Below, piece after piece: positions 750-43,338 of a stretch of 64,000 nt of DNA. Under the pieces are notes generated by a model. That model was not told the origin of the DNA, ran no database searches, and worked only from the letters and a program-made list of their open reading frames with translations. Both the position numbers and the translations under genes were made by a program. Each line of letters begins with the position of its first letter. Position 1 is the stretch's first letter. Origin of the DNA: Phycisphaerae bacterium. GTDB lineage: Bacteria; Planctomycetota; Phycisphaerae; UBA1845; Fen-1342. Location: contig JASFQK010000004.1 of assembly GCA_050115495.1 (NCBI GenBank), forward strand, positions 1-64,000, given 5' to 3'.

Positions 750-1580
750 TCAGGTTCCGACCATCGCCCGAGCGACCGCGCGGAAGTCGCGAAGGTTCTC
801 GGGCAGCGGGTCGGAGTGCCATTCCGCGCCGCGGACGGTGTTGTCCCAAACCGCTCTCATGCCGAGGAATGCCAGGACCCCGCCGACAACCGACAGGAAG
901 CACGGCCCCCCGATCAGCAGATGCAGCAGGATCGTGCTCGCCGCGATGATGATGAGGACCAGGAGGACACGCCCGTCGCTCTCCAGGCCCTCCGTCAGCC
1001 TGTCCGTCCACGTCGGTCGCAACGGCGGCAGCCGGTCTTCGGAGATCCAACGCAACCGTTCCCACACTTGCCGGAGGCATCGTCCGCGGATCACGTCTGC
1101 CACGGGCGTGCTCGGGGCGAAACGTGGCGTTCCGGGCTGCATCGCCGCGACGGTGTGCTCGATGACGCCGAACGCTCCCGCCGTCAGGCAGGGCTTGCCG
1201 AGCACGACCACGGGCTCCAGGGTCGGGGCCGATGCGCGGCCGGCGATGAACCGCGCGAATTCTGCGAAGGTACAACGAGGCCCGTACTCGGCTTCCCACT
1301 TGGCTCTGCTGCGCACGTCCATGCCGAAATGCTGCTTCCATTCCGGCAGCGATTGTCGCTTCCAGGCGAGCCACACCGCGCGCGGATGGCCACAGAAGCG
1401 GTCGAGCTCGAACAGCACATCGGACAGATCGATGTCGTCCAGCCCTTTCTGTTCCAACCACCGGTCGACCCGCGTGTTCGGATCGTCCGGCATCTCCTCC
1501 GTCAGGCAGCGTTTCCACACGCGGCGCATTCCGCGCATGACCTGTTCCGGCGTAAGCCCCCGCGTTTCTTTCGTGTCCAT
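750..1580 (-). CDS. Hypothetical membrane protein with acyl-carrier-like segments
   Basis: GLDDIDLSDVLFELDRFCG...TFAEFARFIA resembles ACP helices; two C-terminal TM segments; start placed at MDTKE. Confidence 0.6.
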   Translation of the reverse strand: MDTKETRGLTPEQVMRGMRRVWKRCLTEEMPDDPNTRVDRWLEQKGLDDIDLSDVLFELDRFCGHPRAVWLAWKRQSLPEWKQHFGMDVRSRAKWEAEYGPRCTFAEFARFIAGRASAPTLEPVVVLGKPCLTAGAFGVIEHTVAAMQPGTPRFAPSTPVADVIRGRCLRQVWERLRWISEDRLPPLRPTWTDRLTEGLESDGRVLLVLIIIAASTILLHLLIGGPCFLSVVGGVLAFLGMRAVWDNTVRGAEWHSDPLPENLRDFRAVARAMVGT

Positions 1581-2049
1581 CGGTTGCCCTCCACACGGGA
1601 ATGTGGGGATTGTGACCCGGGCCGGTTGTTTCAGCAAGGTCGTGGGAGAGAGGCTCGGCTCACGCCCACGCCGGGTGAGCGCGCCAGTCGGCGGTCAAAC
1701 CCATCCGCTCGCGTGCGGAAGGGGCCCGGCAGCAGCCGCGCACAGGAAAACCGGCCCTTTATGCGCATCGCCAGGGGCGAGAGGCGCGGCGGGTATGTTG
1801 ATGGAAGTATCCGGCGGCAGGCGGGCGGTGTCGAGTCGGCACACGTGAATTCGCGAACGCTGACCGAGCGTGGCGGGGATTTGTTTGATAATGCTGCCCC
1901 GCGGTGCGACGAGGGAATGTTCGACGGGAAGAAACCGCGGCAGCTCGTCGGCCCCGTCCGAAGTCGCCGGGTAGACGGGGCGACCACGGGCAGGTGTACC
2001 GACGAGCTGTGCCGCGGAGGAGGTCCTTGGGTACGTTCGTGTGTGCTGC

Positions 2050-2075
2050 CGCGGGCCGTTCGACAGCGGCCCGCG
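2050..2075 (-). terminator. GC-rich hairpin downstream of the dockerin-tailed gene
   Basis: CGCGGGCCG-N8-CGGCCCGCG 17 nt past the stop; no clear U tract. Confidence 0.4.
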
Positions 2076-2092
2076 ACAGCAGGTTCCTGAGT

Positions 2093-3505
2093 CTACGAAG
2101 GCAAGGCCAATGCGCCGGTGCAGTTCGCCTGGAGCACGATGAAGTCTTGGAGGTCGACGTCGCCGTCGTGGTCCAAGTCTGCTGCCGCGCAGCCCGATGC
2201 GTGCGGGCAGTCCGGGCAGGACAGGCAATCGGCCAGGAGTTCGAGATCCACGCTGTCGATGTCCAGGTCACCGTCCATGTCGCCCGGGCCGCACACCCGC
2301 AGGTTGTCGAAGAACGTGTGGCCGTCGGCCAAGTCGCCGAACTCCTGCGTGATCTCGATCCCGAGCGCCAGTTCGTGTGTGCCGGAGAAGCTACGCACGT
2401 CCGCGTATTGATTGGGGTACTCGCGCACATCGCGGCCGAACCACAGCTTTTCGCCGTCCACGGCTACGTATGCCAGGCTGCTGTGGTCGTTTTGATGGAT
2501 GGACACGTCGAACCAGACGGCCAGCACATCGGTGAGGTCCACCGTCTGGTAGAACTCGAGCAGGTCGCCCGGATAGTGGCCGCCGTTGTAGCGGGAGGCG
2601 AACATGTAGAGCGAGAAGTCTCCGTCGGACACGTAGTTCCATTCGGGGTTGTTGATGAACGCCTCGCCGTGACCGTTGACGTTTCCCACGCGTCGCCACT
2701 GCCAAGACTCGGGCATGCCGCGATAGGGTGGGCCGTCGGTCCAGCCGCCGTTGGGCATCTCGCCGGCCCATTCGATCTCGAAGCTGGGGTTGCTGATCAC
2801 GCCCTCCTGTGGCAGTGCGGCGCCGTAAAGCTGGAAGGTCAGGTCAACGGGCTGCCAACCGGTGGGGAGACTACCACTATACGTGGTGATCACGCCCAGT
2901 GGATTCCTGCCCCAGTGCACCCAGTTCTCGCCGTCGGCCGAGAACGCCGCGGGGCCACCGTCCTGGAAGCCGGGCTGACGATGGCTCCAGTTGAACTCTT
3001 CCATCCCGAACACGTCGTGGCGAACCTGGACACCGACCCAGTACACGACGGGGTTATCGGGAGTGCCTTGCTGCAGGAAGCGATAATACTCGGGCAGTGT
3101 GATGTGGAATTCGCCGCCGCCCGCGTCGTACCAGCCGTAGTGGTTGGGGTCGCTCGGGTTGGCGACCGGCAGCCACCCGCTGTAGTAGAGCAATTCGCCA
3201 GGGTGGCTGTCGCCGTCTTCCGACGCCGGGACGTCGGCCCAGAAGAACACCTCGACGCCCAGGTTGTAGGGGTCGTCGATACCGCGAACGTGGATCTCAG
3301 AGATGCGGCCGGGCTCGGTGCAGACGAAATCGTCGGCACAGAGGAAGTAGAAATTGGCGTCGCCATCCCGCCAGCTTGGAGCGCGGAAGTAGTCGACGGG
3401 GCCGTATTGGTCGATCTTGAGCGGATCTCCCCAACCTGCCACGGCAGGTGTGACGATCAACAGCAGGGCCAAAAGACGCAGGAGCGAACCGAGTCGAGCA
3501 TTCAT
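2093..3505 (-). CDS. Secreted protein with C-terminal dockerin-like/EF-hand pair
   Basis: Signal peptide ending AVA-GWG; N-domain ADDFVCTEPGRISEIHVRG; central ISNPSFE beta-sandwich-like domain; C-terminal GDMDGDLDIDSVD...ADLDHDGDVDLQDF. Confidence 0.85.
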   Translation of the reverse strand: MNARLGSLLRLLALLLIVTPAVAGWGDPLKIDQYGPVDYFRAPSWRDGDANFYFLCADDFVCTEPGRISEIHVRGIDDPYNLGVEVFFWADVPASEDGDSHPGELLYYSGWLPVANPSDPNHYGWYDAGGGEFHITLPEYYRFLQQGTPDNPVVYWVGVQVRHDVFGMEEFNWSHRQPGFQDGGPAAFSADGENWVHWGRNPLGVITTYSGSLPTGWQPVDLTFQLYGAALPQEGVISNPSFEIEWAGEMPNGGWTDGPPYRGMPESWQWRRVGNVNGHGEAFINNPEWNYVSDGDFSLYMFASRYNGGHYPGDLLEFYQTVDLTDVLAVWFDVSIHQNDHSSLAYVAVDGEKLWFGRDVREYPNQYADVRSFSGTHELALGIEITQEFGDLADGHTFFDNLRVCGPGDMDGDLDIDSVDLELLADCLSCPDCPHASGCAAADLDHDGDVDLQDFIVLQANCTGALALPS

Positions 3506-3626
3506 GTCACTGACTCCGCAGAAGACTAAACGAGACTGGCCTGACGGGTCCTGACACGCGTCGTTGGCCAACAACTGCACGAACGCTTACTCAGACAACA
3601 CAGGCGCGTCGCTCTGCGGCGGTGAG

Positions 3627-4421
3627 CTACCGCCGGCGAACGACCATCAGCCCGCCCAGCATCAACAGGGCCAGCGTCGTCGGCTCGGGCGTGCCGTACA
3701 CCTGAAGCTCCATGTCCACCGAGCGCCAATCGTCGGGCAGCGTGCCGGCGTAGGAACCGAATTCCCAGTGGTCGCCGTTGAACGAGTCCTCTACGTAGTG
3801 GGCGCCCAGGTGCTGCCAGTTCCCGCCGCCATCGGTGTTCCCGACGACCGCGCCGCTGAGGTTGTGGATGTCGGGCGGGTTGGGCTCGTCGTTGCTGAGG
3901 TTATCGCGATGGCTCCAATAGAACTTCTCGATGTGGAAGATGTCGTGCTCGGGCTGCACACCGACCCAATAGGTGACCGGGTTGCTGGCTGAGCCCACCT
4001 GGAGGAACCAGTCGTCTTCAGGGAGGGTGATGCAGAACTCCCCGGTGCCCGTGTCCCACCAACCTACCTTGTTTGGGTCGCTGCCACTGGCAGTGCCCAG
4101 GTCCCAGGACTTGAGCAGCTCGCCCGGATGGGCGTCCTCGTCCGTCGTTGCCGGGATATCCGCCCAGATGAACACGCGGACGCCGAGGTTGTAGATATCG
4201 TCCACACCACGCACGCGGATCTCATTGATCCAGCCGGTCTGCGTGCAGAGGAAGTCGTCCGCCACCAATTGCCCGCCGCCCATGGTGCTCCACCAGCTTT
4301 CGGTCCTCCGGCCGTGGGGGTCGGGGTTGTCGAACTGATCCCACTTAACCGGATGGCCCCAGCCGGCCAGTGCTGCCGCACTCAGCGTGCTCATCGCCAT
4401 AATCGCAATCATCGTCCTCAT
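3627..4421 (-). CDS. PEP-CTERM sorting domain protein
   Basis: AGGAGGAG RBS, signal peptide, C-terminal TPEPTTLALLMLGGLMVVRRR; N-domain paralogous to 2093-3505. Confidence 0.92.
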   Translation of the reverse strand: MRTMIAIMAMSTLSAAALAGWGHPVKWDQFDNPDPHGRRTESWWSTMGGGQLVADDFLCTQTGWINEIRVRGVDDIYNLGVRVFIWADIPATTDEDAHPGELLKSWDLGTASGSDPNKVGWWDTGTGEFCITLPEDDWFLQVGSASNPVTYWVGVQPEHDIFHIEKFYWSHRDNLSNDEPNPPDIHNLSGAVVGNTDGGGNWQHLGAHYVEDSFNGDHWEFGSYAGTLPDDWRSVDMELQVYGTPEPTTLALLMLGGLMVVRRR

Positions 4422-4428
4422 AGCAGAT

Positions 4429-4653
4429 CTCCTCCTCACGAAAGGACTACGGGCGACACCCCGTACAGGGCGTGTCGTCAGGATCCGCCGGCGCAGAAGA
4501 CAAACCGCTGCGAGATCGCAAGTCTCGCGCTTCCCGCACCACGGGCAACCGCTCAGGCCCTCCAGGTCTTGCTGTCGGTTTGTGCGTGCGCCGGGGAGCC
4601 ATGTCACGACAGAACGTCAGGATATGAGTGAGTGTCTCGGTCACAAACGCATA
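4429..4653 (-). promoter_or_regulatory. Duplicated control cassette, copy A (operator-like repeat, degenerate promoter, structured leader, RBS)
   Basis: Aligns without gaps to 5318-5542 at offset 889; manual count 106/140 identical in the leader and 22/26 in the repeat block. Confidence 0.8.
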
Positions 4654-4825
4654 CAGGTCGATTCTGATGGGGAGTGCAGCGAGTGAGAAATGGTTGGACG
4701 TCCCCATGGGTCAGAACCTCATTCGTGCCGAGCGACCTTTCGAACACCAGGACGCCGAGATCGTGCGACTGGCCGTACGAGCGCTGGCTCAATTTGGCAC
4801 AGACGCATCGCACTGCGCCCGTGGA

Positions 4826-5311
4826 CTACCGCCGGCGAGCAAGCGTGAGCCCGCCCAGGACCAGCAGAATCAGCGTCGCTGGCTCTGGGACCTGGTGGAA
4901 GTTCGTGACGTCCATATGGCCGGTGTCGTAGGCGCTGTCCAACGACCAAATACCGATGTCAAACGAATCGCCGGCCGTCAGGTTCAGCGAGAGGCTGCCG
5001 ATGGTATGGCCCGAACCGTCAGCGAACTCCGTCTTGTCCCCGTTGATGCGATAGAAGGCGGCCTCGAAGCCGTCGTCCGTCCAGTAGTCGAAGTCGAACG
5101 TGAGCACGCCGGTGGCCGGGGCGATGCCGCTGAAGAAGCCCTCGGATTCTTGAAGCCCAGGGCCCCCGGGGCCATCCACATGCATCGCATCCGGCGAGTA
5201 CAGCGTGCCGGAGCCGTATCCGTTCCACACGAAACCGAAATCGTCGATGTCAGCGGCGCCGGCGACGGCGGCCAGGACTCCCAACAGCATCAGGGCAACA
5301 ACTCGTCTCAT
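4826..5311 (-). CDS. PEP-CTERM sorting domain protein
   Basis: Signal peptide, strong RBS, C-terminal VPEPATLILLVLGGLTLARRR. Confidence 0.92.
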   Translation of the reverse strand: MRRVVALMLLGVLAAVAGAADIDDFGFVWNGYGSGTLYSPDAMHVDGPGGPGLQESEGFFSGIAPATGVLTFDFDYWTDDGFEAAFYRINGDKTEFADGSGHTIGSLSLNLTAGDSFDIGIWSLDSAYDTGHMDVTNFHQVPEPATLILLVLGGLTLARRR

Positions 5312-5317
5312 GGTTTC

Positions 5318-5542
5318 CTCCTCCTCTTGCGAGGACTACCGACGACACCCCACGCAGGGCGCCTCATCACGATCGGGCGGTGCGGAAGACCATTCGCCGC
5401 GAAACCTCGGGTCTCGCACTTCCGCGACCACGGGCCACCGCTCAGGCCCACCGGATCGCGATTTCGATCGTAGCGATTGCCGAGGGGGCATGTCAAGATA
5501 AAATGTCAGGATATAATTAAGTGCCTCTGAATAAAATGGTTA
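5318..5542 (-). promoter_or_regulatory. Duplicated control cassette, copy B, with sigma70-like promoter
   Basis: Minus-strand TTGACA-N18-TACGAT; tandem TATC(C/T)TGACAT repeat overlapping -35; hairpin-rich leader; homologous to 4429-4653. Confidence 0.8.
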
Positions 5543-5595
5543 CGTGCGAAATAATGGTATGGACATGCCCGGGCGGAAGTCGCTAGAATGTCGGC

Positions 5596-6843
5596 ATGGC
5601 GCAGAAGCTCAGTGATGCCGAGCAGTCCTTCGAGAACCAGGCCGCCGAGGTCATGCAGCGTGTGCGCGCCGCCGTCGAGCACCTCGTCACGCGCGTCACC
5701 GGCCGCACGCACACGCGCAGCTCGGACCTGGTCGACGCGCTGACCGTCGATCCGCGTCTGGCGTGGAAGTTCGTCAAGATCATTCAGCCGGGCGACCCGC
5801 TGGCCGCGATCCGCTACGTGCCCGGTCCGCGCGGCATCAAGCTCTTCCTGAATGCGGCGGCGCGGCGGCCGGGCGTGGCCCCGGCCATCGCCGCTGCCAA
5901 GGAAGCTTTCGGCGACTTCGAAGCACTGGTGCGGCGTGAGGGCGGCGACCGCCGATCGTTCGACATGATGGTCGCCGGCCACAGTCAGACCGACCGCGGC
6001 GACGTCGACCTGGAGCACCGCAAGGGCGCCTTCACGCACAACAGCTACATCTGGGGTGTGCAGGCCCGCGCCCAGATTCACACGTATCTGGTGCAACCGT
6101 CCGGCGACGGTGAGCATCTGGACGCGGCGGTGGTGCGCGGCTTCGTGCGCTTGCGGCGTGTGCGGCCCCATACACCGTGGCGCATCTCACGCTTCTACAC
6201 CATCGACGATTCCGGCGAGGTGCACGGCGAGTTCGCACGCTCGCCCATCGATCCGCCCGACGAGGACGCGGTGCCTCTCTTGCGGCGGTTCTGCTCCAAG
6301 CCAATGCCCCAGGTCCGGCGAGAGGTCGGGCCGCATGCCGTGATTGACTACGTGCTGGCGGAGTCGGACGTGGGCAACACCGGAGCGGTCACGTGCCTGA
6401 CCGGCGAGCTGATCCGCAAGGCGGAGCCCTGTTTCGCCGACGACTTGCACGCCGTGCTCGGCACGAAGACGCCGCTGCGCACGCCGTGCGAGGTCGTCGT
6501 GGCGGACCTGTTCCTGCGTCGTGACTTCTTCGGGCAGATATCGCCGTCGCTCCGGCTGGTCAGCGACCTGTTCAGCGAGCGGATGGGCATTATCTATGGG
6601 CCGACGGATCAGCTCCCGCTGCAGGATCAGGTCGAGTCTCTGGGCGGCGGGCCGTACGTCGCGCCGATGCCGGAGATGCCGCGCTACGCGGAAATGATCC
6701 AGCACTGCGGCGATCGCCTGGGGTGGAACCTCGAGCAGTTCGACTGCTACAGGGTGCGGGTCCAGTACCCGCCAGTGCCCGCCGCGCTGGTGGTTCACTC
6801 GCCGCTGCCGCCGCGATCACGCGAAGCCGACGCGACCGGCTGA
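5596..6843 (+). CDS. Uncharacterised protein, putative HTH transcriptional regulator (paralog 1)
   Basis: 415 aa; RSSDLVDALTVDPRLAWKFV is HTH-like; full-length similarity to 9903-11141; TGGACA-N18-TAGAAT ends 6 nt before ATG. Confidence 0.7.
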   Translation: MAQKLSDAEQSFENQAAEVMQRVRAAVEHLVTRVTGRTHTRSSDLVDALTVDPRLAWKFVKIIQPGDPLAAIRYVPGPRGIKLFLNAAARRPGVAPAIAAAKEAFGDFEALVRREGGDRRSFDMMVAGHSQTDRGDVDLEHRKGAFTHNSYIWGVQARAQIHTYLVQPSGDGEHLDAAVVRGFVRLRRVRPHTPWRISRFYTIDDSGEVHGEFARSPIDPPDEDAVPLLRRFCSKPMPQVRREVGPHAVIDYVLAESDVGNTGAVTCLTGELIRKAEPCFADDLHAVLGTKTPLRTPCEVVVADLFLRRDFFGQISPSLRLVSDLFSERMGIIYGPTDQLPLQDQVESLGGGPYVAPMPEMPRYAEMIQHCGDRLGWNLEQFDCYRVRVQYPPVPAALVVHSPLPPRSREADATG

Positions 6844-6985
6844 GGTCACGCCCGGCCCGCGATAGCTGCACTCCCTGCCTTCTTCTCACAGCAAGCCGCC
6901 GCATCCCTCACTCATAGTCGACGGTCGGCCCGCCGCACGGGACGATTCTGTCGTTCATTGTCGCCGTGGGTTTCGCCGGTCTCAT

Positions 6986-7573
6986 GTGTCGGAGTATATG
7001 ACGGACGTGGAACCAGCCTGCCGGCCGGCGGCGGAGTTCGTGCGGATGAGCCAGGCACGCGGAGAAGAGGGCATCGCGGACATGATCCAAACGTATCGCG
7101 ATACGGTGCACCCCCTCTACGAGTTCGTTGCCCGGCGGGCCGGACGGTCTCGGCAGTTGGCCGAGGACGTCACGCAGGAAACGTACCTGCGGGCCGTTGT
7201 GCAGTGGCGAAACGGGCGGCCGCCCGATAATGCGCTGGCCTGGCTGCAAACCGTCGCCCGCCGGCTGCTGCTCAATCACTACCGCCGAAAGAGCCCCGCG
7301 TCGCTCGACGGCCTGGATCTCGCGCAGGTGCTGGAGACGGCGCCGGTGGCGGGGCCCGATGCGGCGGCCGTGGTGTACTGGGGTCTGTCGCGGCTGGGAC
7401 GCGGTCCACGCCGACTGCTCGAGGCGTTCTATATCGAGGGTGCATCGACCCGAGCCATCGCGACGGAGCTCGGCGTGTCCGAGCGGGCTGTCGAAGGCCG
7501 TCTCCGCCGAGCGCGGCAGGCGTTGAAGAAACGATTGATGCCGATCATGCCAGAGCATGGAGACCAATCATGA
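6986..7573 (+). CDS. ECF RNA polymerase sigma factor
   Basis: LAEDVTQETYLRA, WLQTVARR (sigma2); IATELGVSERAVEGRLRRAR (sigma4). Confidence 0.92.
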   Translation: MSEYMTDVEPACRPAAEFVRMSQARGEEGIADMIQTYRDTVHPLYEFVARRAGRSRQLAEDVTQETYLRAVVQWRNGRPPDNALAWLQTVARRLLLNHYRRKSPASLDGLDLAQVLETAPVAGPDAAAVVYWGLSRLGRGPRRLLEAFYIEGASTRAIATELGVSERAVEGRLRRARQALKKRLMPIMPEHGDQS

Positions 7574-8517
7574 ATGCGGAAGCTATGCCGAATCCGGAGT
7601 TCGTGAAGTTCCTCGAGTGGCAACTCGAATCTACCGTTCGTCGCCAGAAGACGCTCAACGGCACGCCACGAGCGGCCAAGCTCGTGCGCTCCCGGGTGGG
7701 TACGATGTTGGCCCTCGCCGTTGTGTCCATGTTCATCGGCGGCAGCGGCACCTACGCCGCTACGCACCGCAGCGACAGGGTGGCGGCGGAGTTGTACATA
7801 GCCCGCGGCGAAGCGATGCTGGAGATCGCCCGAACGCTAGAGCAGTACGCGGGCCGCGATCTGGACCACGTACGCTCGCTCCGCGAAGCGGGTATGGTGA
7901 TGGCCCGGGAGGTGCTGCGGGCGGAAGCCCGGTACGTAGAAACACAGTCGGTCGTCGAGACCCGCGAATTGGAGCTCACCGAGACGCGCCTCACCGGCAA
8001 GGAGCCGAATGACGGCTTGGCCGCCCCGCGCGTCGACGGTTGCGATTTCGTGTCCGAGCGCCTGGCCGTTCGCCGGCCGCCGCTGGAAGCGCAGCTCAAG
8101 TTCGCGGTCACCGTGGCGCAGCGCAAGCAGGTGCTTGTCGAGAGCGGTTTGGCGATGGCGACCGAGTTGAAGGACGCTCAGGCCCATGTCGCCGATATCC
8201 AGGCGAACCTGGACGACCTGGACCAGCGCCTGACGCTACGGGCGTCGTTCCTGGCCGGCGAGTTGTCCGCGCGGGAGGTGGAGCTCCAGGGCATGCGTCT
8301 GTCGGCAAGTGTCGCCCGCGAGGCGGCGACTCGGCGGCTGGCAGTAGTCACCGAGCAGCACCAGCGGCGGGCGGATCTGGCGGAATGCGGCATGGTCCAC
8401 GAGACGGAGCTGCGGGCCAGCGAGGCGACGCTGCGCACAATCCAGGCTGAGGTGGAGCTCGCGGAGCTGGAACTGCGCATCATCGATGAGAAGATCGCGG
8501 AAACGCCGGACGAATAG
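7570..8517 (+). CDS. Putative anti-sigma factor, single TM with helical-hairpin extracytoplasmic region
   Basis: ATGA overlap with ECF gene; short N-terminal domain, one TM, repeated LxExG(M/L)x...E(L/V)xxA motifs. Confidence 0.65.
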   Translation: MNAEAMPNPEFVKFLEWQLESTVRRQKTLNGTPRAAKLVRSRVGTMLALAVVSMFIGGSGTYAATHRSDRVAAELYIARGEAMLEIARTLEQYAGRDLDHVRSLREAGMVMAREVLRAEARYVETQSVVETRELELTETRLTGKEPNDGLAAPRVDGCDFVSERLAVRRPPLEAQLKFAVTVAQRKQVLVESGLAMATELKDAQAHVADIQANLDDLDQRLTLRASFLAGELSAREVELQGMRLSASVAREAATRRLAVVTEQHQRRADLAECGMVHETELRASEATLRTIQAEVELAELELRIIDEKIAETPDE

Positions 8518-8566
8518 ACGCGGCTGCTACCGCCGACGCCGGCGGTGCAGCATGGGATACATCACA

Positions 8567-8602
8567 GAGGGCCGACCGGCGCTGGTGTGCCGATCGGCCC
8601 TC
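8567..8602. terminator. Hairpin between convergent genes
   Basis: GAGGGCCGACCGGC-N8-GCCGATCGGCCCTC. Confidence 0.55.
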
Positions 8603-8631
8603 CGGCCAGGTTGGAGATGGGGAGCGTGGTC

Positions 8632-9735
8632 TTAGCGGCGGCGCAGCAGAGCCAGCGTGCCGAGGACGATCGACAGGAACGACGTCGGCTCCGGAATCAG
8701 CAGGACGAACCCGCGGTTCTGTCCGTTGTACGTGCCGTTTCCGGCGATCCAGCCGGTGTCACTGATGGCGATGCCTTCACGGAGGACCCAGCCCGAGCCC
8801 GCCGGAAGGAAGTCATTCAGGTCGGTCATGACGCCGTCTTCCCAGATGAACGCGTGCGTCTGGCCGCTGTCCGTGGAAGAGACGCCGACGGCCACGCCCA
8901 GGTTGTTGATGTCCCAGGCAAAGCTGTAGTTCCCGCCCAGATGGCCCATGTCGATGATGTTGCCTTGTTCCCACAGAGTGGCATGGATGATCTCGTCCGG
9001 CACGAGGTCCGAGTAGCCGACGATCTGGCCCGAATCATTGATGCCCCAGGCCTCGGCGTAGCACCAGTCGGATTCACCAATCGTGCCCAGGTCCTTCGAG
9101 GTCTCACCGTCGAAGGCGTAGGCCCGCCACGGGCCGTCACCCATCCAGTAGCCGGTGGTCTGGCCGAGGTTGTTGATGCGGTGGCCCGAATAGAACACGC
9201 TGCCGGGGACAGCGGGAATCAGACTCGAGGGCTCGGACTGCCCCACCTGCCAAGTGCACGCCGCGAACTCCGGGGAGCCGCCGGTTTCGTACGAGCCGAC
9301 AATGACGCCGGCATCGTTGATGCCCATGCCTTCAGACCAGCACGTCGAGCTGTTGCCCGGCGGGTTGAGCGTCGTCACCGCTCCGGCATCCCAGGAGAAC
9401 CCGCGGTTGTCGCCACTCGTGCGGCCGTACCAGCCGGCCACCTGCCCGTTGTTGTTGATCCCCCAGGCCAGACCCTGGGTCACGCCGGTCTGACCGGCGA
9501 GCAGGTCGGTCATGGTGCCGTTGTCCCACAGGTACGCCATCCGCGTGCCGCTCGCGGTGTAGGATGTACCGACGACCTGGCCATGATTGTTGACGTCAAA
9601 CACTTGACTTCTCGACCCATCGGACGGGATCTCCCAGATGCCCTCGATGTCGTCGGCACACACCGACACTACGGCGAGCAGGGCTATCGCCGTGGTCAAC
9701 CAGCGCGACAGATTGAGCTTGTGCAACTGCATCAT
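8632..9735 (-). CDS. PEP-CTERM protein with HAF-type extracellular repeats
   Basis: Repeated AWGINxxGQ(I/V)VG and HAFIWEDGVMTDL; C-terminal IPEPTSFLSIVLGTLALLRRR. Confidence 0.93.
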   Translation of the reverse strand: MMQLHKLNLSRWLTTAIALLAVVSVCADDIEGIWEIPSDGSRSQVFDVNNHGQVVGTSYTASGTRMAYLWDNGTMTDLLAGQTGVTQGLAWGINNNGQVAGWYGRTSGDNRGFSWDAGAVTTLNPPGNSSTCWSEGMGINDAGVIVGSYETGGSPEFAACTWQVGQSEPSSLIPAVPGSVFYSGHRINNLGQTTGYWMGDGPWRAYAFDGETSKDLGTIGESDWCYAEAWGINDSGQIVGYSDLVPDEIIHATLWEQGNIIDMGHLGGNYSFAWDINNLGVAVGVSSTDSGQTHAFIWEDGVMTDLNDFLPAGSGWVLREGIAISDTGWIAGNGTYNGQNRGFVLLIPEPTSFLSIVLGTLALLRRR

Positions 9736-9902
9736 CTCCTCCTCCTTTACAAGTGTTGAGGAACTCGGGGTTGCTACACCAGTGCCTTGCAGGCACGACT
9801 CCTCGAACGAAGTCGCCGACCGGACGACGCTACCACTTCATGCCGCCCGGTGCGGCGACGTACTTCACACGGGGGCCGGCGTTTGCCGGTGGTACTCCTC
9901 TC

Positions 9903-11141
9903 TCACGGCCGCGGGGGCAGGCGTTGCCACGCGCATACCGACGTCGGAATCGGCGGATACTGCATCTGCACGCGGAACACGTCGAAGCGATCGGCCGCCC
10001 AGCCAAGGCGATCGAACATGCTCTGCACCATCTCCGCGTACTGTGGCACGAGCGGCGTGCGGGCCACCTGCACACCCTGACCCAGGTGCGTTACCGACTC
10101 GAACACGCGCAATCGATCCCGGTCATCGCGCATGTCCGGCCCGCCGAGTTCGCCGTACACCCGCAGCTCACGCTCCGTGGGCCCAAAAAGGTCTTGGTGG
10201 ACGAACTGATCGAAGATCAACCGTTCGACCGGCGTGCGCAACTGCACGCCAAACTCGGCGATCTCGTTGTGTTCGTCCTGATAGCGCGTGGCGGCGTTAC
10301 GCGACACCTCGGCCATGTAGAACGTCATTGCCCCCCGATTGCCGATCGGTGTCTCGACCAGCTCGTCCTCGAAGAAGCCGTGCGCGCCGCGGCGTCGCCG
10401 GAACTTCGGCAACGGCTGCGAGCAGAACTCGGTCAGCAGTGGGACGCCGCCCGCCGCTCCCAGGCTCTCGGTGCCGCCCAGCGGTTCGCGCGCGTCGGGT
10501 CGGCGCTCGGTCCAGTCATCGTCCGTGCCTTTGGTCCGGAAGAGGACGTGCGGGACGTTCTGTCGCGTGCGGCGGAAGTTGCGGAATCCCCGGAGGCGCG
10601 TCACGTCGAACAGGCCGTCCTGGGCCGATGGCTGCATGAGAAGCGCTACCACGTGCACCTGGGCTTGCATGCCCCAGATGTAGCTGCCGGAGTTGAACAT
10701 AGCCTGGCGCTGGGCGAGATCCGCCTTCTGGGCTCCGTCGCTGGCGCAAGCCGTCAGGAGCATGTTGAGCGATTCCCGATCACCCGCATGAACTCTGGTC
10801 AGGCGGTCGAAATCCCTCATGGCGGCGCGGGCGGTATCGATCAGGGTGGGTTCGACGCCGCGCAGTTCCGCGGCGGCCAAGAACCTGCTTAGGGGCACCG
10901 CGGTGGGGACGTGGTGGCCGGCGAGGAAGAGATCAGGCTGGTAGACGACGTTGGCGATTTGCCAGCCCAGTTTGCGGTGGATACCCAGTGCTTTCGAGAC
11001 TTCGTGGGCGCGGGTGACTTCGCCGGGCAGGCGATGCAGGATGGCCACGAATGCGTCGCGAACGCGTCCGATTACCTCCGGAGCTTCGACCCCAAACGGG
11101 CGTGTCCCCAAGCCGGCAGCTTTCTCTCCCGTCGTTTCCAT
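9903..11141 (-). CDS. Uncharacterised protein, putative HTH transcriptional regulator (paralog 2)
   Basis: RAHEVSKALGIHRKLGWQI HTH-like; shares SYIWGxQA, VPLLxxFCSxP, LRTPxE, YAEM...DRLGW, QYPP with 5596-6843. Confidence 0.7.
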   Translation of the reverse strand: METTGEKAAGLGTRPFGVEAPEVIGRVRDAFVAILHRLPGEVTRAHEVSKALGIHRKLGWQIANVVYQPDLFLAGHHVPTAVPLSRFLAAAELRGVEPTLIDTARAAMRDFDRLTRVHAGDRESLNMLLTACASDGAQKADLAQRQAMFNSGSYIWGMQAQVHVVALLMQPSAQDGLFDVTRLRGFRNFRRTRQNVPHVLFRTKGTDDDWTERRPDAREPLGGTESLGAAGGVPLLTEFCSQPLPKFRRRRGAHGFFEDELVETPIGNRGAMTFYMAEVSRNAATRYQDEHNEIAEFGVQLRTPVERLIFDQFVHQDLFGPTERELRVYGELGGPDMRDDRDRLRVFESVTHLGQGVQVARTPLVPQYAEMVQSMFDRLGWAADRFDVFRVQMQYPPIPTSVCAWQRLPPRP

Positions 11142-11470
11142 GCGCCTGAAAATAACGGATTCCGGCCTGGATTTCCAGGTGAATTTCCGAAACACACACG
11201 GAAATGCGCCGCGACAGGCAACCAGGCAAGGGAAAGTGTTCATAAACTCTTGTAGTACAGTGTCTTATGGCTAATGAATCGCCGGGCGACCGCTGTTGTT
11301 CGATGAACACCCGGGGCGCGTGATGTTGACCCCTGGAGTCCTGCCGACACGCGGCGGGTGTCGCCGCGGATCCCGCCATCATCTCAGGGCCTCATCGGGC
11401 GCTGCGTGGTCGAGCGAACGACGAGCGCTTCCGAGCGGCAGGCGCTGGCGGCGCCCCGGACAGAGTACGC

Positions 11471-11500
11471 TTGAACACCTTATGGCGTATGCACTACAAT
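11471..11500 (+). promoter_or_regulatory. Sigma70-like promoter of PEP-CTERM gene
   Basis: TTGAAC-N18-TACAAT, about 230 nt upstream of ATG 11733. Confidence 0.5.
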
Positions 11501-11732
11501 GCAGGCAGGTGGGAAGTCTGATTCGACGGAACCAGACTTTCGCAGGGAAGCAAAGGGAACGGAGGCAGGCAACGGAGGGCGAGCTTCACCTCTCCGCGTA
11601 TTCGCTTGCGCGTTTCGTGTACTCGGCGCCGGCTTGTTCGTTGGGCCTGGCATTATCAGCCGAGTTCGTGCTTCTACTCAATTCTTGTGGCGTGGAAGGC
11701 ATCACCGCTGTCCACGGAAAGGAGGATGGGTC

Positions 11733-13094
11733 ATGCGCATGATTGTTTGGTTGCGTTTGGCAACCGTTGTCGCTTGCGGCGTACTGCTCGCCCTGGCGAC
11801 GCCGGTGGCAGCCCAGACGGCCACGGCGCTGGTTCGGGAGGAACAGGAGCTCCCCGGCGCTCCAGGGCAGGTGGTCGACTCGATCGGTAACTCGGCGGTG
11901 AACCACGTCGGCGGTTATGCATTCGGTGTCGTCACGGTGGGCACGGGCACGCTGAGTACCGGTTGGGGCAACGCAACGGGTGGCGCGGGCACCGTGCTGC
12001 GTACCGAGGGGATCTTCGGCGACTACGATCAGACGTCGTGGGAGAGCTTCTACGGTATGGCCAACTCCGGCGCGCTAAGCTACAGCCCGCTCTGCACGTA
12101 CATTCCCTCAGGCACGACGAGCCTGGACAGCGTCTGGCTGGAGGACACCTTCATCGCCATGGAGGAGACGGCGTATCCGCACGCCGCCGGCTACTACTGG
12201 AGTTTCGGCAGCCGGCCGGGCGTGACGGCCGACGGTGTGCCGTACTTCGTCGGCGGTATCACGACGACGCCGGGCGGTTCGACGCAGAACCGCGGTCTGT
12301 TCTACGGCATGTCGGCCACGCCGCTGTTGATGGGCGGCGACACACTGCCCAACCTGCCCTACGTGCTCGACACGAGCAGCACCGTCAGCTTCGACTACCG
12401 CTTCTCGGCGCTCGGCACGAACTACATGGGCGAAGTCCAGATGGATACGACCAGCACCGTCGACAATGCCATGGTGATGAACGGTTCGGGTCTTATGCTG
12501 GGCGGCGGCCTCGTTCGCGAGGGCTCCACGATGCCGGAGGCTATCGGCGGTCTGCCCGGCGAGAACTGGGACAACTTCGACTACCTCAGCATCACCGAGT
12601 CCGGCAGCTACCTCATGACCGGCGACAGCGATGCCGCCAGTGGCGTTGACGAGTTCGTCATCGTCAACGGCCAGGTCGTCATGCGCGAAGGCGACATGCT
12701 TGGCGACTACACTCTCAGCGGTTCGATCGAAGGTGGCTACATGAACGAGGACGGCGACTGGGCCGTCGTCTGGGACGTCAACGAACCGGGCCGGGCGAAT
12801 ATCGAAGTGCTGATCGTCAATGGCGACATCGTTCTCAAAGAAGGCGATGCGGTGGATTGGGATGGCGACGGTTTGCCTGACGCCGACGCGATCGTGACCG
12901 ACTTCACCGGGCTCAGCGCCCTGACCGTCGGCGACCGCGGCATGCGAGGTGAGGACTTCTTCGATATCTACACGACGATCGACGTGGACATAGATGGCCG
13001 CGTTTTCGAGGGCGGATTCCGGCTGTCCATTCCTGAGCCAGCGACGTTCTCGCTGTTGCTCCTGGGCGGTCTGGCCCTGCTGCGCCGACGGTAG
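11733..13094 (+). CDS. PEP-CTERM sorting domain protein, beta-repeat-like
   Basis: AAGGAGG RBS, signal peptide, repeated (M/V/L)(R/K)EG(D/S) motifs, C-terminal IPEPATFSLLLLGGLALLRRR. Confidence 0.92.
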   Translation: MRMIVWLRLATVVACGVLLALATPVAAQTATALVREEQELPGAPGQVVDSIGNSAVNHVGGYAFGVVTVGTGTLSTGWGNATGGAGTVLRTEGIFGDYDQTSWESFYGMANSGALSYSPLCTYIPSGTTSLDSVWLEDTFIAMEETAYPHAAGYYWSFGSRPGVTADGVPYFVGGITTTPGGSTQNRGLFYGMSATPLLMGGDTLPNLPYVLDTSSTVSFDYRFSALGTNYMGEVQMDTTSTVDNAMVMNGSGLMLGGGLVREGSTMPEAIGGLPGENWDNFDYLSITESGSYLMTGDSDAASGVDEFVIVNGQVVMREGDMLGDYTLSGSIEGGYMNEDGDWAVVWDVNEPGRANIEVLIVNGDIVLKEGDAVDWDGDGLPDADAIVTDFTGLSALTVGDRGMRGEDFFDIYTTIDVDIDGRVFEGGFRLSIPEPATFSLLLLGGLALLRRR

Positions 13095-13144
13095 GCCGGT
13101 TGTTGGTCGACGAGTCTCAGGATCGGCGCGCTACGCGTGAGGCG

Positions 13145-13176
13145 GGAACCGGGTCGTGAACAAGCGACCCGGTTCC
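13145..13176 (+). terminator. Terminator-like hairpin
   Basis: GGAACCGGGTCG-N8-CGACCCGGTTCC, perfect 12-bp stem after the PEP-CTERM gene. Confidence 0.65.
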
Positions 13177-13445
13177 TGTCATTGTGTGGCGCCCGTTGAC
13201 GTGCGTCCGGACGTGCTGGCGGGTCGGCTACTTGTCTAGACCTGCGTCATTTCCCGAAATCCGCGTTACGGTTGCGCCTCCCGCCGGACTAGGAGAACAG
13301 GAATACTGTTCTCGCGGGCGGGCCGGGGGGCCGCCCGTGACCCTTTGCGCTCGACAGCGCCTATTGCTCCAGTGCGTCGTCGGCAACTTCTGTGGTGCGC
13401 GCATCTCGTGAGTTGTCGGGGCTGTTGTGGTATAATGGCCTCGAC

Positions 13446-14084
13446 ATGATGGGCGTGCCGATCTCCGACGAGGTGGTGCACGCGGCGGCGGAGGGCGTGT
13501 CTACAGCCCGCGACGCGTTGCTCGCAGCGGTGGAGCCGCGGGTGCGGTTGATGGTGGCGGCGCGGCTGAGTCCACGACCGGAGCAATTCGCCGCCGTGGA
13601 CGACATCACACAGGAAGTCCTGCTCGCAACGATGACAGGACTAAGGGGACTGCGCATACAGACGGCGGCCGGCCTGCGGGCCTTCATCGCCGCGACGGCC
13701 AGGAACAAGGTCGCCGACTATATCGATGGCGGGCGTCATGCGGGCATCGGCGGGGCGACGGCAACGGTGTGCCTCGAGACGACGATCCACGCGCTGTCCG
13801 GGGCTGCTCCGTTGTGGGCCTTGCTGTCGAGCAGCGGCACGACGCCCTCAGCAGCCTTCGAGCGCGATGAGCTGGCGGTCCGAATGCTGGGTGAGTTGGG
13901 GCGGTTGCCCGAGCACTATCGCGACATCGTTACGCTGGCCTTCTTCGGCGGGCTGACCACGAGAGAGATCGCGGCGGACAAGGGCAAGGAGCGCGGGGCC
14001 GTGGCCATGATGTTGCTACGGGCCATCCGCATACTGCGGCGGCAAATGACGGGTTCGAGCCGGTGTGGCTTCGTGGATGGTTGA
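13446..14084 (+). CDS. ECF sigma factor, kinase-associated planctomycete type
   Basis: VDDITQEV, ARNKVAD, long sigma2-sigma4 linker with SSSGTTPS, LPEHYRDIVTL...TTREIA; overlaps downstream kinase; start uncertain. Confidence 0.85.
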   Translation: MMGVPISDEVVHAAAEGVSTARDALLAAVEPRVRLMVAARLSPRPEQFAAVDDITQEVLLATMTGLRGLRIQTAAGLRAFIAATARNKVADYIDGGRHAGIGGATATVCLETTIHALSGAAPLWALLSSSGTTPSAAFERDELAVRMLGELGRLPEHYRDIVTLAFFGGLTTREIAADKGKERGAVAMMLLRAIRILRRQMTGSSRCGFVDG

Positions 14085-16584
14085 GCCGGGTGGAGACAAG
14101 CCGGACGAACTGGCCGACCGCGTCGATGAGGCGTTGGCGGCCCTGCTGGAGAAGGGGGACAGCGCGCCGCTGGCGGGGTTACTGGGCGAGTCGGATGACG
14201 GTCCCGGACTGGACGCGATGTTTGGTCCACTGCTCGCTGGCGGGGCGGTGCGGGTGGTCGGACTGCCGGCGGACGGCGAGGTCCCGGGATACCAGATCGT
14301 GCGGGAGGTCGGCCGTGGGGGGATGGGTGTGGTCTACGAGGCGCAGCAGGAGCACCCGCATCGGCGGGTGGCATTGAAAGTGCTGCCGACCCTGGGCGCG
14401 GACAAACACGCCCGTGAGCTGTTCCACCGCGAGGTGCAGACGCTGGCCCTTCTGTCACATCCGGGTATCGCCACGATCTACCACGCCGGGCAGACCGAAG
14501 GTGGGCAGCAGTTCTTCACGATGGAGCTCGTCGAGGGGGCCACGCTGATCGAGTACTGCCGGGAGCACGGACTGTCCCGCAGGGACCGGCTGCTGCTGTT
14601 TCTGCGGGTGTGCGAGGCGGTGGCCTACGCCCATCGCCACGGCGTCGTGCACCGCGACCTCAAGCCGGCGAACATCCGGGTGGACGCGGAGGGCAATCCG
14701 CGGCTGCTCGACTTCGGCCTGGCCCGCCTGACCGGAGCTGATGTGTCGTTGGTCACGCCGCCGACCGAGCCCGGGCGGATCATGGGCACGTTTTCGCACA
14801 TGAGTCCGGAGCAGGCCCGCGGTGACTCGGCGAAAATCGACGCGCGGGCGGATGTGTATGCGCTGGGCGTGATTCTGTACGAGCTGCTGTCAGGTCGGCG
14901 GCCGTACGAGCTGAAAGCGGCTTCCTCAATCGAGGTGGCGCGGATCATCTGCGAGCGGCTGCCGAAGCCGCCGAGTGCGCACGACCCGGCCCTGCGGGGC
15001 GATCTGGACACCATCGTGCTGAAGGCATTGGAGAAGGAGCGCGACCAGCGCTACGCCTCGGTCGAGGAGCTGGCCGATGACGTTCGGCGGCACATGCGGG
15101 GTGAGCCGCTCATGGCCCGGCGGCGGCGCGTGAGCTACGTGGCGTCCCGGTGGGTGCGGCGGCATCGGCGGCGGTTGCTGGCGGCGGCGGGAGCTGTGCT
15201 GCTGGCCGTGCTGGGCGTCCATGGCGGCTTGTGGTGGCGTGACGCGGCGCTGGACGCTCGGCGGGAGCGTGAAGTGGCCAGAATGCGCGCGTCGATCGTC
15301 GAAATCGCTCGCGATGCGGAGCTCGTCCGGCTGGAGGTCGCGTTCAGACGTGTGCAATCGCTAGTCGACCGGCGCGATGAGGCCCCGGAGTTGGAGTTGC
15401 TGTGGGCCAGCATCATCTTTCGGCTCGGCCGGCAGAACGGCGATCGGAGCAGTGAGACGCACGCTATCCACCGCTTGTTGGAAATACCCGCTGGTGACGC
15501 AAGAAGCTGGGCCGCCACGGCGTTGCTCGCAGAGATGGGTGAGCAAGCGAAGGACACGCGGCTGGCGTCGCTGGACGGCAGCGCTGCGGCGGTTGTGCCG
15601 GACACAACCGAGGCACGCTATCTCCGCACCTACGCCACGATGGACCCGGCTCGGGCCTGTGCGTATGCCGAGGAGGCGGCCCGGCGTGATCCGGACCACT
15701 ACCTCACGGCAATCCGGCTGGCCAATCTGCGCCTGGTGACGGCCGACTTCGCCGGAGCCCGCGAGGCGGCCAAACGTGTGCGAGCTTTGGGGGGCGACGA
15801 TTTCACGTGGCGGATGTTCGAGGGCAATGCGTGCCTGATGGCCGGGGAGTACGAGGCGGCAGTGCAGCAATACAAGCTTGCGGCCAAGTGCCGTCCGGAA
15901 CGCTACGAGCCGTGGGACGGACAGGGCCATGCTTACCTCTGTGCGGGGAAGTACGCCGCGGCCGCGGTTGCGACGGAAGGGTGGGACGGCGACTCGGGAG
16001 TGATGTGGGTCGTGTACCGACGAGCCACGCTGCTGTGGATCCTGGGCCGGCGGGAAGAGGCTGTGGAGGAGTACCGCAAGTTCCGGGCGCAGTACGGGCG
16101 GACGTTTTACGCGGACCACCGTCTGTACCTGGTACTCGCCGAGCTGGCCTACCTTCACGATCGGGCGGGGGAAATCGCCGAAGCCGAGCGAGCGGAGCAA
16201 GCGGCGCAGGAGGCCCTGGCGATGGGTACCGAGGCGGCGCGTGCGAATGCTTGGATGTCGACCCTCTTCCAGTGCCTGCGTGGTGAGATCTCGCCCGACG
16301 AGCTGCGAGCCACCACGGCGCCGAGGAGCAAAACGTACACCTGCGAGGCCTGCTATTACGCCGGCGAGACCTGTCTACTGCGGGCCCGGGCCGCCCGCAA
16401 TGTGGAGGAAGTCAAACGCTGGCTGGCGGTAGCGGGCGACGCCTTCCGCGCCTGCGTCGACACCGGTCTCGTGCTGGAAGAGGGCAAGTACCGTCCACAG
16501 GCGATGAACGAATATCACTTGGCCGTGTGGCGGCTCGATCTGCTGGCGCATGGGGATCCGGCGATTCCCACCGTCGGCGACTAG
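14077..16584 (+). CDS. Membrane Ser/Thr protein kinase with TPR-like C-terminal region
   Basis: GRGGMGVVY, VALK, HRDLKPAN, DFG, MSPE, DVYALG; TM near residue 375; helical repeats. Confidence 0.95.
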   Translation: MVEPGGDKPDELADRVDEALAALLEKGDSAPLAGLLGESDDGPGLDAMFGPLLAGGAVRVVGLPADGEVPGYQIVREVGRGGMGVVYEAQQEHPHRRVALKVLPTLGADKHARELFHREVQTLALLSHPGIATIYHAGQTEGGQQFFTMELVEGATLIEYCREHGLSRRDRLLLFLRVCEAVAYAHRHGVVHRDLKPANIRVDAEGNPRLLDFGLARLTGADVSLVTPPTEPGRIMGTFSHMSPEQARGDSAKIDARADVYALGVILYELLSGRRPYELKAASSIEVARIICERLPKPPSAHDPALRGDLDTIVLKALEKERDQRYASVEELADDVRRHMRGEPLMARRRRVSYVASRWVRRHRRRLLAAAGAVLLAVLGVHGGLWWRDAALDARREREVARMRASIVEIARDAELVRLEVAFRRVQSLVDRRDEAPELELLWASIIFRLGRQNGDRSSETHAIHRLLEIPAGDARSWAATALLAEMGEQAKDTRLASLDGSAAAVVPDTTEARYLRTYATMDPARACAYAEEAARRDPDHYLTAIRLANLRLVTADFAGAREAAKRVRALGGDDFTWRMFEGNACLMAGEYEAAVQQYKLAAKCRPERYEPWDGQGHAYLCAGKYAAAAVATEGWDGDSGVMWVVYRRATLLWILGRREEAVEEYRKFRAQYGRTFYADHRLYLVLAELAYLHDRAGEIAEAERAEQAAQEALAMGTEAARANAWMSTLFQCLRGEISPDELRATTAPRSKTYTCEACYYAGETCLLRARAARNVEEVKRWLAVAGDAFRACVDTGLVLEEGKYRPQAMNEYHLAVWRLDLLAHGDPAIPTVGD

Positions 16585-35902: not shown

Positions 35903-36442
35903 TCAGACGCGCTGGGCGCGCTTGATCTGCGGCGGATCGACGGGGCGGGAAGCCTCGCCGAGGGCCGGGTCGTTTTGCGTCGGGACGCTCTTGACGCGGT
36001 CGAGAACGTCGAGGCCCTCGACGACCTGGCCGAAGGCGCAGTAGCCCCACCCGTCGCTGCCGGGGTGGTTGAGGAAGCCGTTGTCGACCGTGTTGATGAA
36101 GAACTGCGACGTGGCCGAGTGCGGCTCCGACGTGCGGGCCATGGCGATGGTTCCGCGCTTGTTCGGCAGACCGTTGGCGGCCTCGTTCTCGACCGGCTCG
36201 TGCAGGCCCTTGGTCTTGGACGCAAAGTCGGGTGTGTGCCCACCGCCCTGGATCATGAAATGGGCGATCACGCGGTGGAAGATGGTCCCGTCGTAGAAGC
36301 CCTCATCGACGTAGCGGAGGAAGTTCTTCGTTGTGGCGGGAGCCTTTTGCTCATCGAGCTCGAGGATAATCTGTCCCCAGTCCTCGTCGCCGCAGGAGAT
36401 GTCCAGGGCCACGCGAACGCCGCTGCTGGCGGGGTCGGGCAT
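35903..36442 (-). CDS. Cyclophilin-type peptidyl-prolyl isomerase, cytoplasmic
   Basis: FYDGTIFHRVI, IQGGG, AMAR, SATSQFFIN. Confidence 0.95.
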   Translation of the reverse strand: MPDPASSGVRVALDISCGDEDWGQIILELDEQKAPATTKNFLRYVDEGFYDGTIFHRVIAHFMIQGGGHTPDFASKTKGLHEPVENEAANGLPNKRGTIAMARTSEPHSATSQFFINTVDNGFLNHPGSDGWGYCAFGQVVEGLDVLDRVKSVPTQNDPALGEASRPVDPPQIKRAQRV

Positions 36443-42622: not shown

Positions 42623-42677
42623 GTGTGGCATGCCGGAGCTTGGAGTGTGGCATGCTGAAGCCTTAGGCGCCGGCATG
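42623..42677 (+). repeat. REP cluster left of RAYT
   Basis: GTGTGGCATGCCG (42623-42635) then GTGTGGCATGCTGAAGCCTTAGGCGCCGGCATG (42645-42677). Confidence 0.85.
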
Positions 42678-42693
42678 TCCCCACGCACGCTGC

Positions 42694-43278
42694 TCAGCCG
42701 ATCCTGGGCAGACTGTCCACGTCCAGGGCCAGCGGCACCTCACCGCGCCCGGCGAAGTAGCGTGCGCTCGACCACGGCCACTGCTCAGCAGCGTCGACCA
42801 GCCCGCGCCGTACCGGATTGTTGTGCAGATACTCGATCTCTGCACAGATCGCCTCCGCGTTCGACAGATTGCGATCGAAGCCCCCACCACGCTGCCAGAA
42901 CCGGTGCCGGAATCTGCCGTTGGGTTGCTGGTCACGCATTCGCGCGAGGAATGCCGGGGCGTTTACTTGAACGTAGGTGATGGCTTGTCGTGTCACCGGC
43001 AGTTTGATGTCGCTCAGTATGTTGCCGATCGAATAGACAGGATCTCGCGGCCAGATCAGCAAATGTACGTGCTCGGGCATGATCACGTACGCCCACAGAT
43101 CAAAGGCATGCTTGGCTCGGGCGGCGTCCAGGCTCTCCAGAAACCACTTCCTGGATCGATCCGCGTTCAACAGTGGCTGTCGGTGGAAGCAACAGAACGT
43201 GAGGGCGTGCGCGTCACCCGGCGTGTTGCAGCGCTGGCAGGTCTTGTATTTCGGCCGTTGCGGCGGCGGCTCGTGCAT
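42694..43278 (-). mobile_element. REP-associated tyrosine transposase (RAYT, HUH Y1)
   Basis: HALTF, YVIMPEHVHLL (HUH), FWQRGGGFDRN, YLHNNPV, WPWSS; flanked by inverted REPs. Confidence 0.92.
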
Positions 43279-43338
43279 CTTGTGTCGCAGCATACCACGC
43301 GCGTCATGTTTGCGCATACTAGTGGCTGCGGCGGATCT

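Follow-up and report, generated by a model that had tools for sequence, protein, structure and literature searches.

A head-to-tail repeat of a PEP-CTERM gene frame with unlike passengers, and a probably decaying control region, beside a predicted divergent regulator in a Phycisphaerae genome

Results and Discussion

The window analysed here, a stretch of 64,000 nt from a Phycisphaerae bacterium (contig JASFQK010000004.1, positions 1 to 64,000), contains two adjacent PEP-CTERM surface-protein genes, A and B, that share homologous control regions and homologous 3’ ends but carry unlike passengers. This arrangement probably arose by tandem repetition of a whole surface-protein gene frame, with one passenger replaced afterwards and the control region of gene A (copy 1) left as a decaying relic beside that of gene B (copy 2). 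The geometry of the locus includes two homology blocks, a detached stub of the neighboring regulator gene, an asymmetry in substitution rate, lost promoter hexamers, and the context of a large regulator family (Table 1).

Table 1. Features of the repeated locus, in window coordinates
Feature	Position	Strand	Evidence or remark
DUF7901 and dockerin secreted protein gene, 470 aa	2093..3505	-	Pfam DUF7901 E 1e-8, Dockerin_1 E 4e-5
Repeat block I copy 1: 3’ flank and PEP-CTERM tail of gene A	3599..3689	-	gapless match to 4798-4888
Gene A: intact 264-aa PEP-CTERM protein, DUF7901 passenger	3627..4421	-	TIGR02595 23.3 bits, cut-off 16
RBS of gene A	4429..4437	-	9/9 identical between copies
5’ leader, copy 1 (probable relic)	4438..4577	-	97/133 identical over 4438-4570; fold z +0.65
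Degenerate promoter, copy 1	4578..4607	-	-35 GTGACA; in-register -10 ACAAAC, not TACGAT
Operator-like element, copy 1, TCACGA-N7-TCAGGA, weakened yet recognizable	4604..4622		22 bits
21-codon 5’ stub of regulator gene, without the putative HTH	4706..4768	+	6-9/10 identical per block, offset 890
Duplication junction	4769..4797		gap between the two homology blocks
Repeat block I copy 2: 3’ flank and PEP-CTERM tail of gene B	4798..4888	-	gapless match to 3599-3689
Gene B: 161-aa PEP-CTERM protein, passenger unlike that of gene A	4826..5311	-	TIGR02595 22.3 bits
RBS and about 150-nt 5’ leader of gene B, predicted structured	5318..5466	-	fold z -2.5
Predicted sigma70 promoter of gene B, TTGACA-18-TACGAT	5467..5496	-	10/12 consensus
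Operator-like imperfect palindrome TCAAGA-N7-TCAGGA, overlaps -35	5493..5511		TCAAGA-N7-TCTGGA in L011 and L015
Predicted regulator promoter TGGACA-18-TAGAAT	5560..5589	+	6 nt upstream of ATG
Predicted one-component regulator, 415 aa	5596..6843	+	helical N-terminal domain, XRE-like HTH (putative); C-terminal beta-sandwich

Two homology blocks delimit the repeated frame

A preliminary description of this DNA had reported a gapless alignment of 4429-4653 with 5318-5542 at a constant offset of 889. The alignment is real: 160 of 225 positions are identical without gaps, compared to a mean of 60.7 (sd 6.5, maximum 82) at 2,699 other offsets, and a recount gave exactly the earlier values for the leader (106/140), the promoter spacer and -10 region (16/31), and the upstream repeat block (22/26). 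The description was nonetheless incomplete, since the homology is longer, a second block exists, and the patchiness that it emphasized is not significant. Upstream, the homology extends to about 4769 and 5658, giving a block of about 4419-4769 versus 5309-5658; BLAST reports 4429-4766 versus 5318-5656 (342 nt, 69%), and a global alignment of 4419-4769 with 5309-5659 contains 113 substitutions and three indels in 349 columns. Both intergenic regions, from the passenger start codon to the divergent start codon, are 284 nt long. Within the block are the opening 21 codons of the divergent gene (MGQNLIRAERPFEHQDAEIVR versus MAQKLSDAEQSFENQAAEVMQ), with stub homology reaching 4769 and background level beyond. 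Substitutions between the copies are spread uniformly without significant clustering (chi-square p 0.14-0.72 at three window sizes; longest identical run 13, p 0.53).

The second gapless block (91 nt, 77%, E 4e-12, offset 1199) consists of the PEP-CTERM tails of genes A and B and about 28 nt past both stop codons. The 30-nt 3’ flanks are identical at 21 positions, compared to a background of 8.8 ± 3.0 for the other 53 tails of the same length, and only 2 of 1,431 pairs of same-length PEP-CTERM tails equal or exceed the flank score of the A/B pair. Over tail plus flank, A and B are mutual best matches among 54 such tails (70/99, next 61), and neither flank matches that of an orthologue elsewhere (8/30 for gene A versus its L011 orthologue, and 7/30). 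Adjacent direct copies are thus homologous at both unit ends (offsets 889-890 and 1199) and meet at a unique junction, between the end of the stub and copy 2 of the second block, the pattern by which a tandem duplication is recognized. Two homologous end blocks around an unlike middle indicate that the whole gene frame was repeated head to tail. The passengers of A and B yielded no blastp match at E 0.01, and because the coding part between the homologous ends is not paralogous, a later passenger replacement would be needed. A single contig of run X1 matches the window over 1900-7100 with 0 differences. The repeat is thus not an evident assembly artefact, although run X1 could itself have supplied the DNA analysed here; runs X2 and X3 contain no more than fragments of the region.

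Among 153 pattern-called PEP-CTERM genes in this genome, no other pair has homologous DNA both upstream and in the 3’ flank around unrelated passengers. Two candidates for a second swap were rejected: the upstream match shared at C49:12961/13819 corresponds to the ends of paralogous genes that precede, and an element common to genes on C7, C15, C55, and C58 is dockerin-coding DNA in the one case examined. An open frame at 4628-5473 (+), which runs from the stub into the antisense strand of gene B, was likewise rejected as a gene, by inference.

Genes A and B both exceed the TIGR02595 cut-off, and the Pfam cut-off for the PEP-CTERM domain is passed by B but not by A. Their N-termini follow a basic-hydrophobic-AxA pattern, judged by eye only, and the genome encodes an exosortase (PF09721, 168 bits, on C7). 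The dockerin gene downstream is the last gene of the predicted operon. Between B and A there is no convincing terminator, just one weak match at 4508-4521; the terminator search gave 2 matches altogether, compared to 2.6 expected. The DUF7901 domain occurs both in gene A and, as a paralogous N-terminal domain, in the dockerin gene (2979-3337 versus 3907-4262, 67% DNA identity), and of this domain no mention was met in the open-licence literature.

Decay of the first control region

Comparison with the metagenome contig L015 as a third sequence assigns 57 lineage-specific changes to copy 1 and 20 to copy 2 (p 3e-5, from one outgroup and one alignment). The asymmetry is seen in the leader (18 versus 7) and between the operator and the -10 (11 versus 1), and in a five-sequence tree the copy 2 branch is about 0 and the copy 1 branch 0.57. 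In copy 1 the AT content of the island is down from 63% to 48%, the -35 has lost its first T (TTGACA to GTGACA), and the -10 is identical at 1/6 positions in register (TACGAT to ACAAAC). Four promoter-like sites were detected in 1900-7100 (0.7 expected), every one of them in copy 2; copy 1 has lost both sigma70 promoters. Judged from these comparisons, copy 1 is likely a decaying relic that changes about three times faster than copy 2.

Two observations count against decay. First, the copy 1 operator is identical to that of copy 2 at 19/24 positions and scores 22 bits when copy 1 is left out of the matrix, on a par with the second-best site listed for the genome; the best site is the copy 2 operator, on which the subfamily matrix was trained. 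Second, the 225-nt run is free of gaps, and the probability of no indel in 65 substitutions is 0.18 with the three indels seen here and 0.03 at the rate of a younger tandem duplicate on C13, a rate that rests on two events. Both would suit a maintained, weaker internal promoter and operator that places gene A under the same regulator, whether as a portable module or through promoter capture by duplication. The C13 duplicate, which has kept its -35, -10, and operator, is a possible precedent, and the RBS is intact at 9/9 positions, as also expected if gene A is simply still translated. Maintenance is nevertheless quite unlikely given the degenerate -10 and -35, the 11-to-1 excess of changes between operator and -10, the lack of significant patchiness, and the lack of a third copy.

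The 150-nt leader could itself be the conserved element, acting as a cis-regulatory RNA such as a riboswitch or attenuator. In addition to the predicted fold of copy 2, helices at alignment columns 45-86 are common to this leader and the distant L015, with 93–94% pairing in three sequences, and 87% of cells are paired compared to 83% after shuffling (8/500). However, the covariation score was reached by 62 of 500 shuffles, with three sequences only and a structure derived from them, and copy 1 retains 39/52 pairs of the copy 2 fold compared to 37.1 ± 2.3 for random placement (p 0.26). No Rfam match was obtained in 3500-7000, even at E up to 5. A leader covariance model recovered the two copies themselves and one borderline match in a different context among 150 genomes, with none below E 0.05 in 23 other loci, and the orthologous loci L011 and L008 have different leaders. 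An RNA element is very unlikely to be what is conserved, and decay of copy 1 after duplication of the frame is preferred.

Distribution of the repeat and passenger exchange

The control region had been proposed as a portable 225-nt module kept by selection in both places. This proposal is not borne out: blastn and nhmmer searches of the genome, like the covariance model, find two copies only, and the uniform substitutions largely resemble those of neutral decay of a tandem duplication. No convincing copy is present in 71 genomes of the family or 150 of the order. Five of the 71 have only short matches at chance level (29-41 nt, E 0.001-0.008), and the 150 include one borderline match (E 0.0099) in an unrelated context. 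The only full-length homologue of the control region is on L015. Dispersed copies before different genes, as a mobile or multi-copy cassette would leave, were not found, and Pfam searches identified no recombinase or transposase among 11 ORFs of 753-14081. Gene B homologues in six other genomes lack a family regulator or cassette in their 1.5-kb flanks. The description as a control region fares better, since an RBS, a leader, a sigma70-type promoter, and an operator-like repeat are all present, but the duplicated unit also holds the stub and the gene 3’ end. The unit that recurs across genomes is the regulator with its operator, not the 225 nt alone.

Related loci show different genes in the same slot. 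In L011, a regulator orthologue (62%) faces a gene A orthologue (71% aa), followed by the dockerin gene; in L008, an unrelated PEP-CTERM gene occupies the slot facing the regulator orthologue; and L015 contains a gene B orthologue (57% aa), the homologous control region, and the regulator start. Dockerin gene orthologues hold the same position in L011 (50%) and L008 (62%), and the gene B promoter arrangement is the same in L015 and L011. By sequence comparison, L015 suggests that gene B is native to the leader, and L011 that gene A is native beside the dockerin gene. Within this genome, five of the eight closest regulator paralog pairs face non-homologous partners, several with similar operators. 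The younger duplicate, at C13:36003-38613 (1,278 nt, 89%), repeats a PEP-CTERM gene with its leader, promoter, and operator beside a family regulator; its passengers are paralogous, with 59-60/60 identity in the leader and signal region and 37/60 at the mature N-terminus. Surface genes beside family regulators appear to have been swapped over time. Elsewhere, C30:23340-23450 is another rearrangement remnant, a detached near-copy of the last ~33 codons of the regulator paralog C30:29105, about 4.5 kb away.

The main historical rival holds that two diverged alleles of a single variable locus, carrying gene A and gene B respectively, came to lie in tandem after horizontal transfer, a joining that truncated the resident regulator, so that much of the 29% divergence is older than the joining. 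This would fit the association of gene A with the dockerin gene in L011 and the occurrence of the gene B leader type in L015. It would also fit the small number of indels, the stub differences per site (synonymous 0.40, non-synonymous 0.24), and the patchy distribution of the locus, since gene A or its dockerin paralogue occurs in 3 of 279 genomes of the order and in 0 of 6 from the same genus. The phylogeny points the other way. Copy 1 groups with copy 2 and L015 rather than with the gene-A-linked region of L011 (89/93 support), the copy 2 branch is near zero, and copy 1 matches L011 at z 1.4 compared to z 77 for copy 1 versus copy 2. Quartets that unite the two copies have weak support when L011 is used (10:7:7) and better support when L008 is (15:5:7). 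Allele joining is judged unlikely, and tandem duplication of the gene frame remains the favored history.

A family of predicted one-component regulators

The divergent 415-aa protein belongs to a family with 58 members in this genome, one of them a fragment, and 2,494 clusters at 50% identity, with named matches in Phycisphaerae. No match was obtained in Pfam (2 members scanned) or NCBIfam (7 members), and this includes HTH_3 and HTH_31 profiles. By our own rough gene calls, 30 of the 58 family genes face a PEP-CTERM gene, compared to 35 of 4,186 other genes, and a further 13 face a gene with a dockerin or similar tail. The regulator was not found in phage or plasmid collections, a sequence search of solved structures returned nothing meaningful, and no description of the family or arrangement was found in open-licence literature. 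A second member, 35% identical, lies at 9906-11141 (-) in the window, with PEP-CTERM genes on both sides (8635-9735 and 11733-13091).

The regulator model (pLDDT 95) has a helical N-terminal domain followed by a mostly beta region at residues 155-403. Foldseek with the full model gave no match at E 0.001. The beta-sandwich resembles domains of BDI_1141 and ribophorin I and the N-terminal domain of aminopeptidase N (Z 8-10.7, rmsd 3.1-4.3). Among atlas clusters, a beta-sandwich like that of P0001 residues 151-410 is joined to an XRE HTH, a DUF4062, or a metallophosphoesterase domain (TM by query 0.36-0.49), and may represent a wider sensor fold. Over 82 residues, the N-terminal domain can be superposed on HigA, RodZ, and an XRE protein (Z 4.9-5.2, rmsd 3.3-4.5), with scores below those of some unrelated helical bundles; atlas rows outside the family are mostly HTH_3/HTH_31 (TM 0.36-0.47). 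A single-sequence model of this domain had low confidence (pLDDT 58) and led to an uninformative fold search. Residues 41-63 of all family members read like what we take to be a helix-turn-helix pattern. The fold comparisons give weak to middling support for a putative XRE-like HTH.

Candidate operators and promoters

Most family loci have back-to-back sigma70-like promoters, called with our own rough weights, around an AT-rich island. Palindromes are enriched in 57 loci relative to shuffles (p 4e-6), and only marginally so relative to 52 AT-rich divergent control regions (p 0.07). At 37 loci a symmetry peak lies 10-11 nt upstream of the partner -35 (z 3.7 and 3.1, compared to 2.2 and 0.4 in the controls, which have peaks at other positions). 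The element of the window subfamily, TCAAGA-N7-TCWGGA, overlaps the -35. A promoter was called at 55 of 73 loci, and 54 of these entered the comparison after L015, with its partial protein, was dropped. Across these, operator similarity shows a small correlation with similarity of the putative recognition helix (Mantel r 0.14, p 0.009, n 54, with kin not independent), and the correlation persists when C-domain similarity is removed (0.15, p 0.004). Operator similarity does not correlate with the C-terminal domain (r 0.035, p 0.26), and the helix correlation is borderline in this genome alone (r 0.10, p 0.053, n 42). From these sequence patterns, we infer that the regulator recognizes the operator-like element through the putative helix. 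The adjacent divergent protein, earlier named as a possible reader of the control region, is its likely reader, and related regulators adjoin different passengers.

A search for the sigma-54 -24/-12 consensus, with one mismatch allowed, gave 0 matches in 4096-8340. The search for PrsK (TIGR02916) gave 57 kinase matches, the best at 105 bits compared to a cut-off of 300, in a genome that is 92% complete.

Proposed mechanism and known systems

The events at this locus may have proceeded as follows. The duplicated frame would have taken in the 21-codon start of the divergent gene, the operator-like repeat, the promoter, the leader, and the RBS and, at its other end, the PEP-CTERM tail with its 3’ flank. 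In one frame the passenger would then have been exchanged through recombination spanning from the RBS/signal region to the PEP-CTERM tail. The redundant copy 1 control region would have decayed, leaving copy 2 as the working control region, from whose promoter B, A, and the dockerin gene could be read as one operon; the RBS alone would still be needed from copy 1. The 415-aa protein, whose message is predicted to be leaderless, would bind TCAAGA-N7-TCWGGA over the -35 through its XRE-like helix-turn-helix and repress gene B until the beta-sandwich senses a ligand. A repressor is the somewhat favored role, and an activator is possible with clearly lower probability. A broader and rather doubtful extension is that Phycisphaerae have dozens of orthogonal regulator-operator pairs of this uncatalogued HTH/beta-sandwich family, each with a slot for PEP-CTERM passengers exchanged by RBS/signal-to-tail recombination. 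The present locus would then be a fossil swap, and the 58 pairs a readable helix-to-operator code.

One comparison system for the divergent arrangement is lambda cI at PR/PRM. As in XRE/Cro-C1 regulators (HigA 2ict, RodZ N-domain 2wus, and 3f6w), a helical N-terminal domain, aligning over the same 82 residues, occurs with operator-like arrays between back-to-back -35 elements. Unlike these, the present regulator reaches only the low Z scores given above, matches no HTH_3/HTH_31 profile, and is a 415-aa two-domain protein of an unlisted family. Mycobacterial TetR regulators form a large paralog family, mostly divergent, with an N-terminal HTH, a C-terminal sensor, private palindromic sites, and small regulons (PMC4482099, in part). 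The family here resembles them as a large set of divergent one-component paralogs with palindromic operators, but its targets are secreted PEP-CTERM or dockerin proteins, and the regulator is not a TetR protein because its C-terminal region is a mostly beta sandwich, not all-helical. In the proteobacterial PrsK/PrsR/PrsT system, a sigma-54 element lies upstream of unrelated PEP-CTERM genes (PMC1569441, in part). Both cases involve a conserved non-coding element before unrelated PEP-CTERM genes; there it is one global sigma-54 motif, whereas here sigma70-type promoters are paired with one local regulator per locus. In the accessible part of PMC12078418, PEP-CTERM is mentioned only in the references. 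Activation of citT in the E. coli long-term experiment involved a head-to-tail duplication with a non-homologous junction that placed a promoter before a gene (PMC11111574, in part). Here, in contrast, a whole gene frame was copied, the passengers differ, and the extra promoter, instead of becoming active, seems to be decaying.

As a repeat, the locus is ordinary; its value lies in exposing an uncatalogued regulator-operator system with exchangeable surface genes. PEP-CTERM regulation has been described for Proteobacteria (sigma-54 with PrsR) and no description was found for Phycisphaerae, of which this genome has about 153 such genes. A family without a Pfam entry offers a testable answer, in which each local regulator has a private operator adjoining a sigma70 promoter. 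The locus also provides a sequence-level trace of unrelated passengers acquiring one export tail and one control region.

Other features of the window and genome

Two ECF sigma factor genes lie within 6986-8517 and 13392-16581, one followed by a gene for a 315-aa protein without a Pfam match and the other by one for a Ser/Thr kinase-like protein. A 72% repeat (35978-36325 versus 36836-37183) falls inside two adjacent genes that, by their look, we take to be cyclophilin-type isomerase paralogues. A 55-nt inverted repeat (42623-42677 versus 43339-43392, 82%) flanks a 199-aa gene at 42697-43293, and this segment could be a small mobile element. A REP-like sequence of ~30 nt is identical at dozens of places in the genome, including C9 near 159800 and many contigs.
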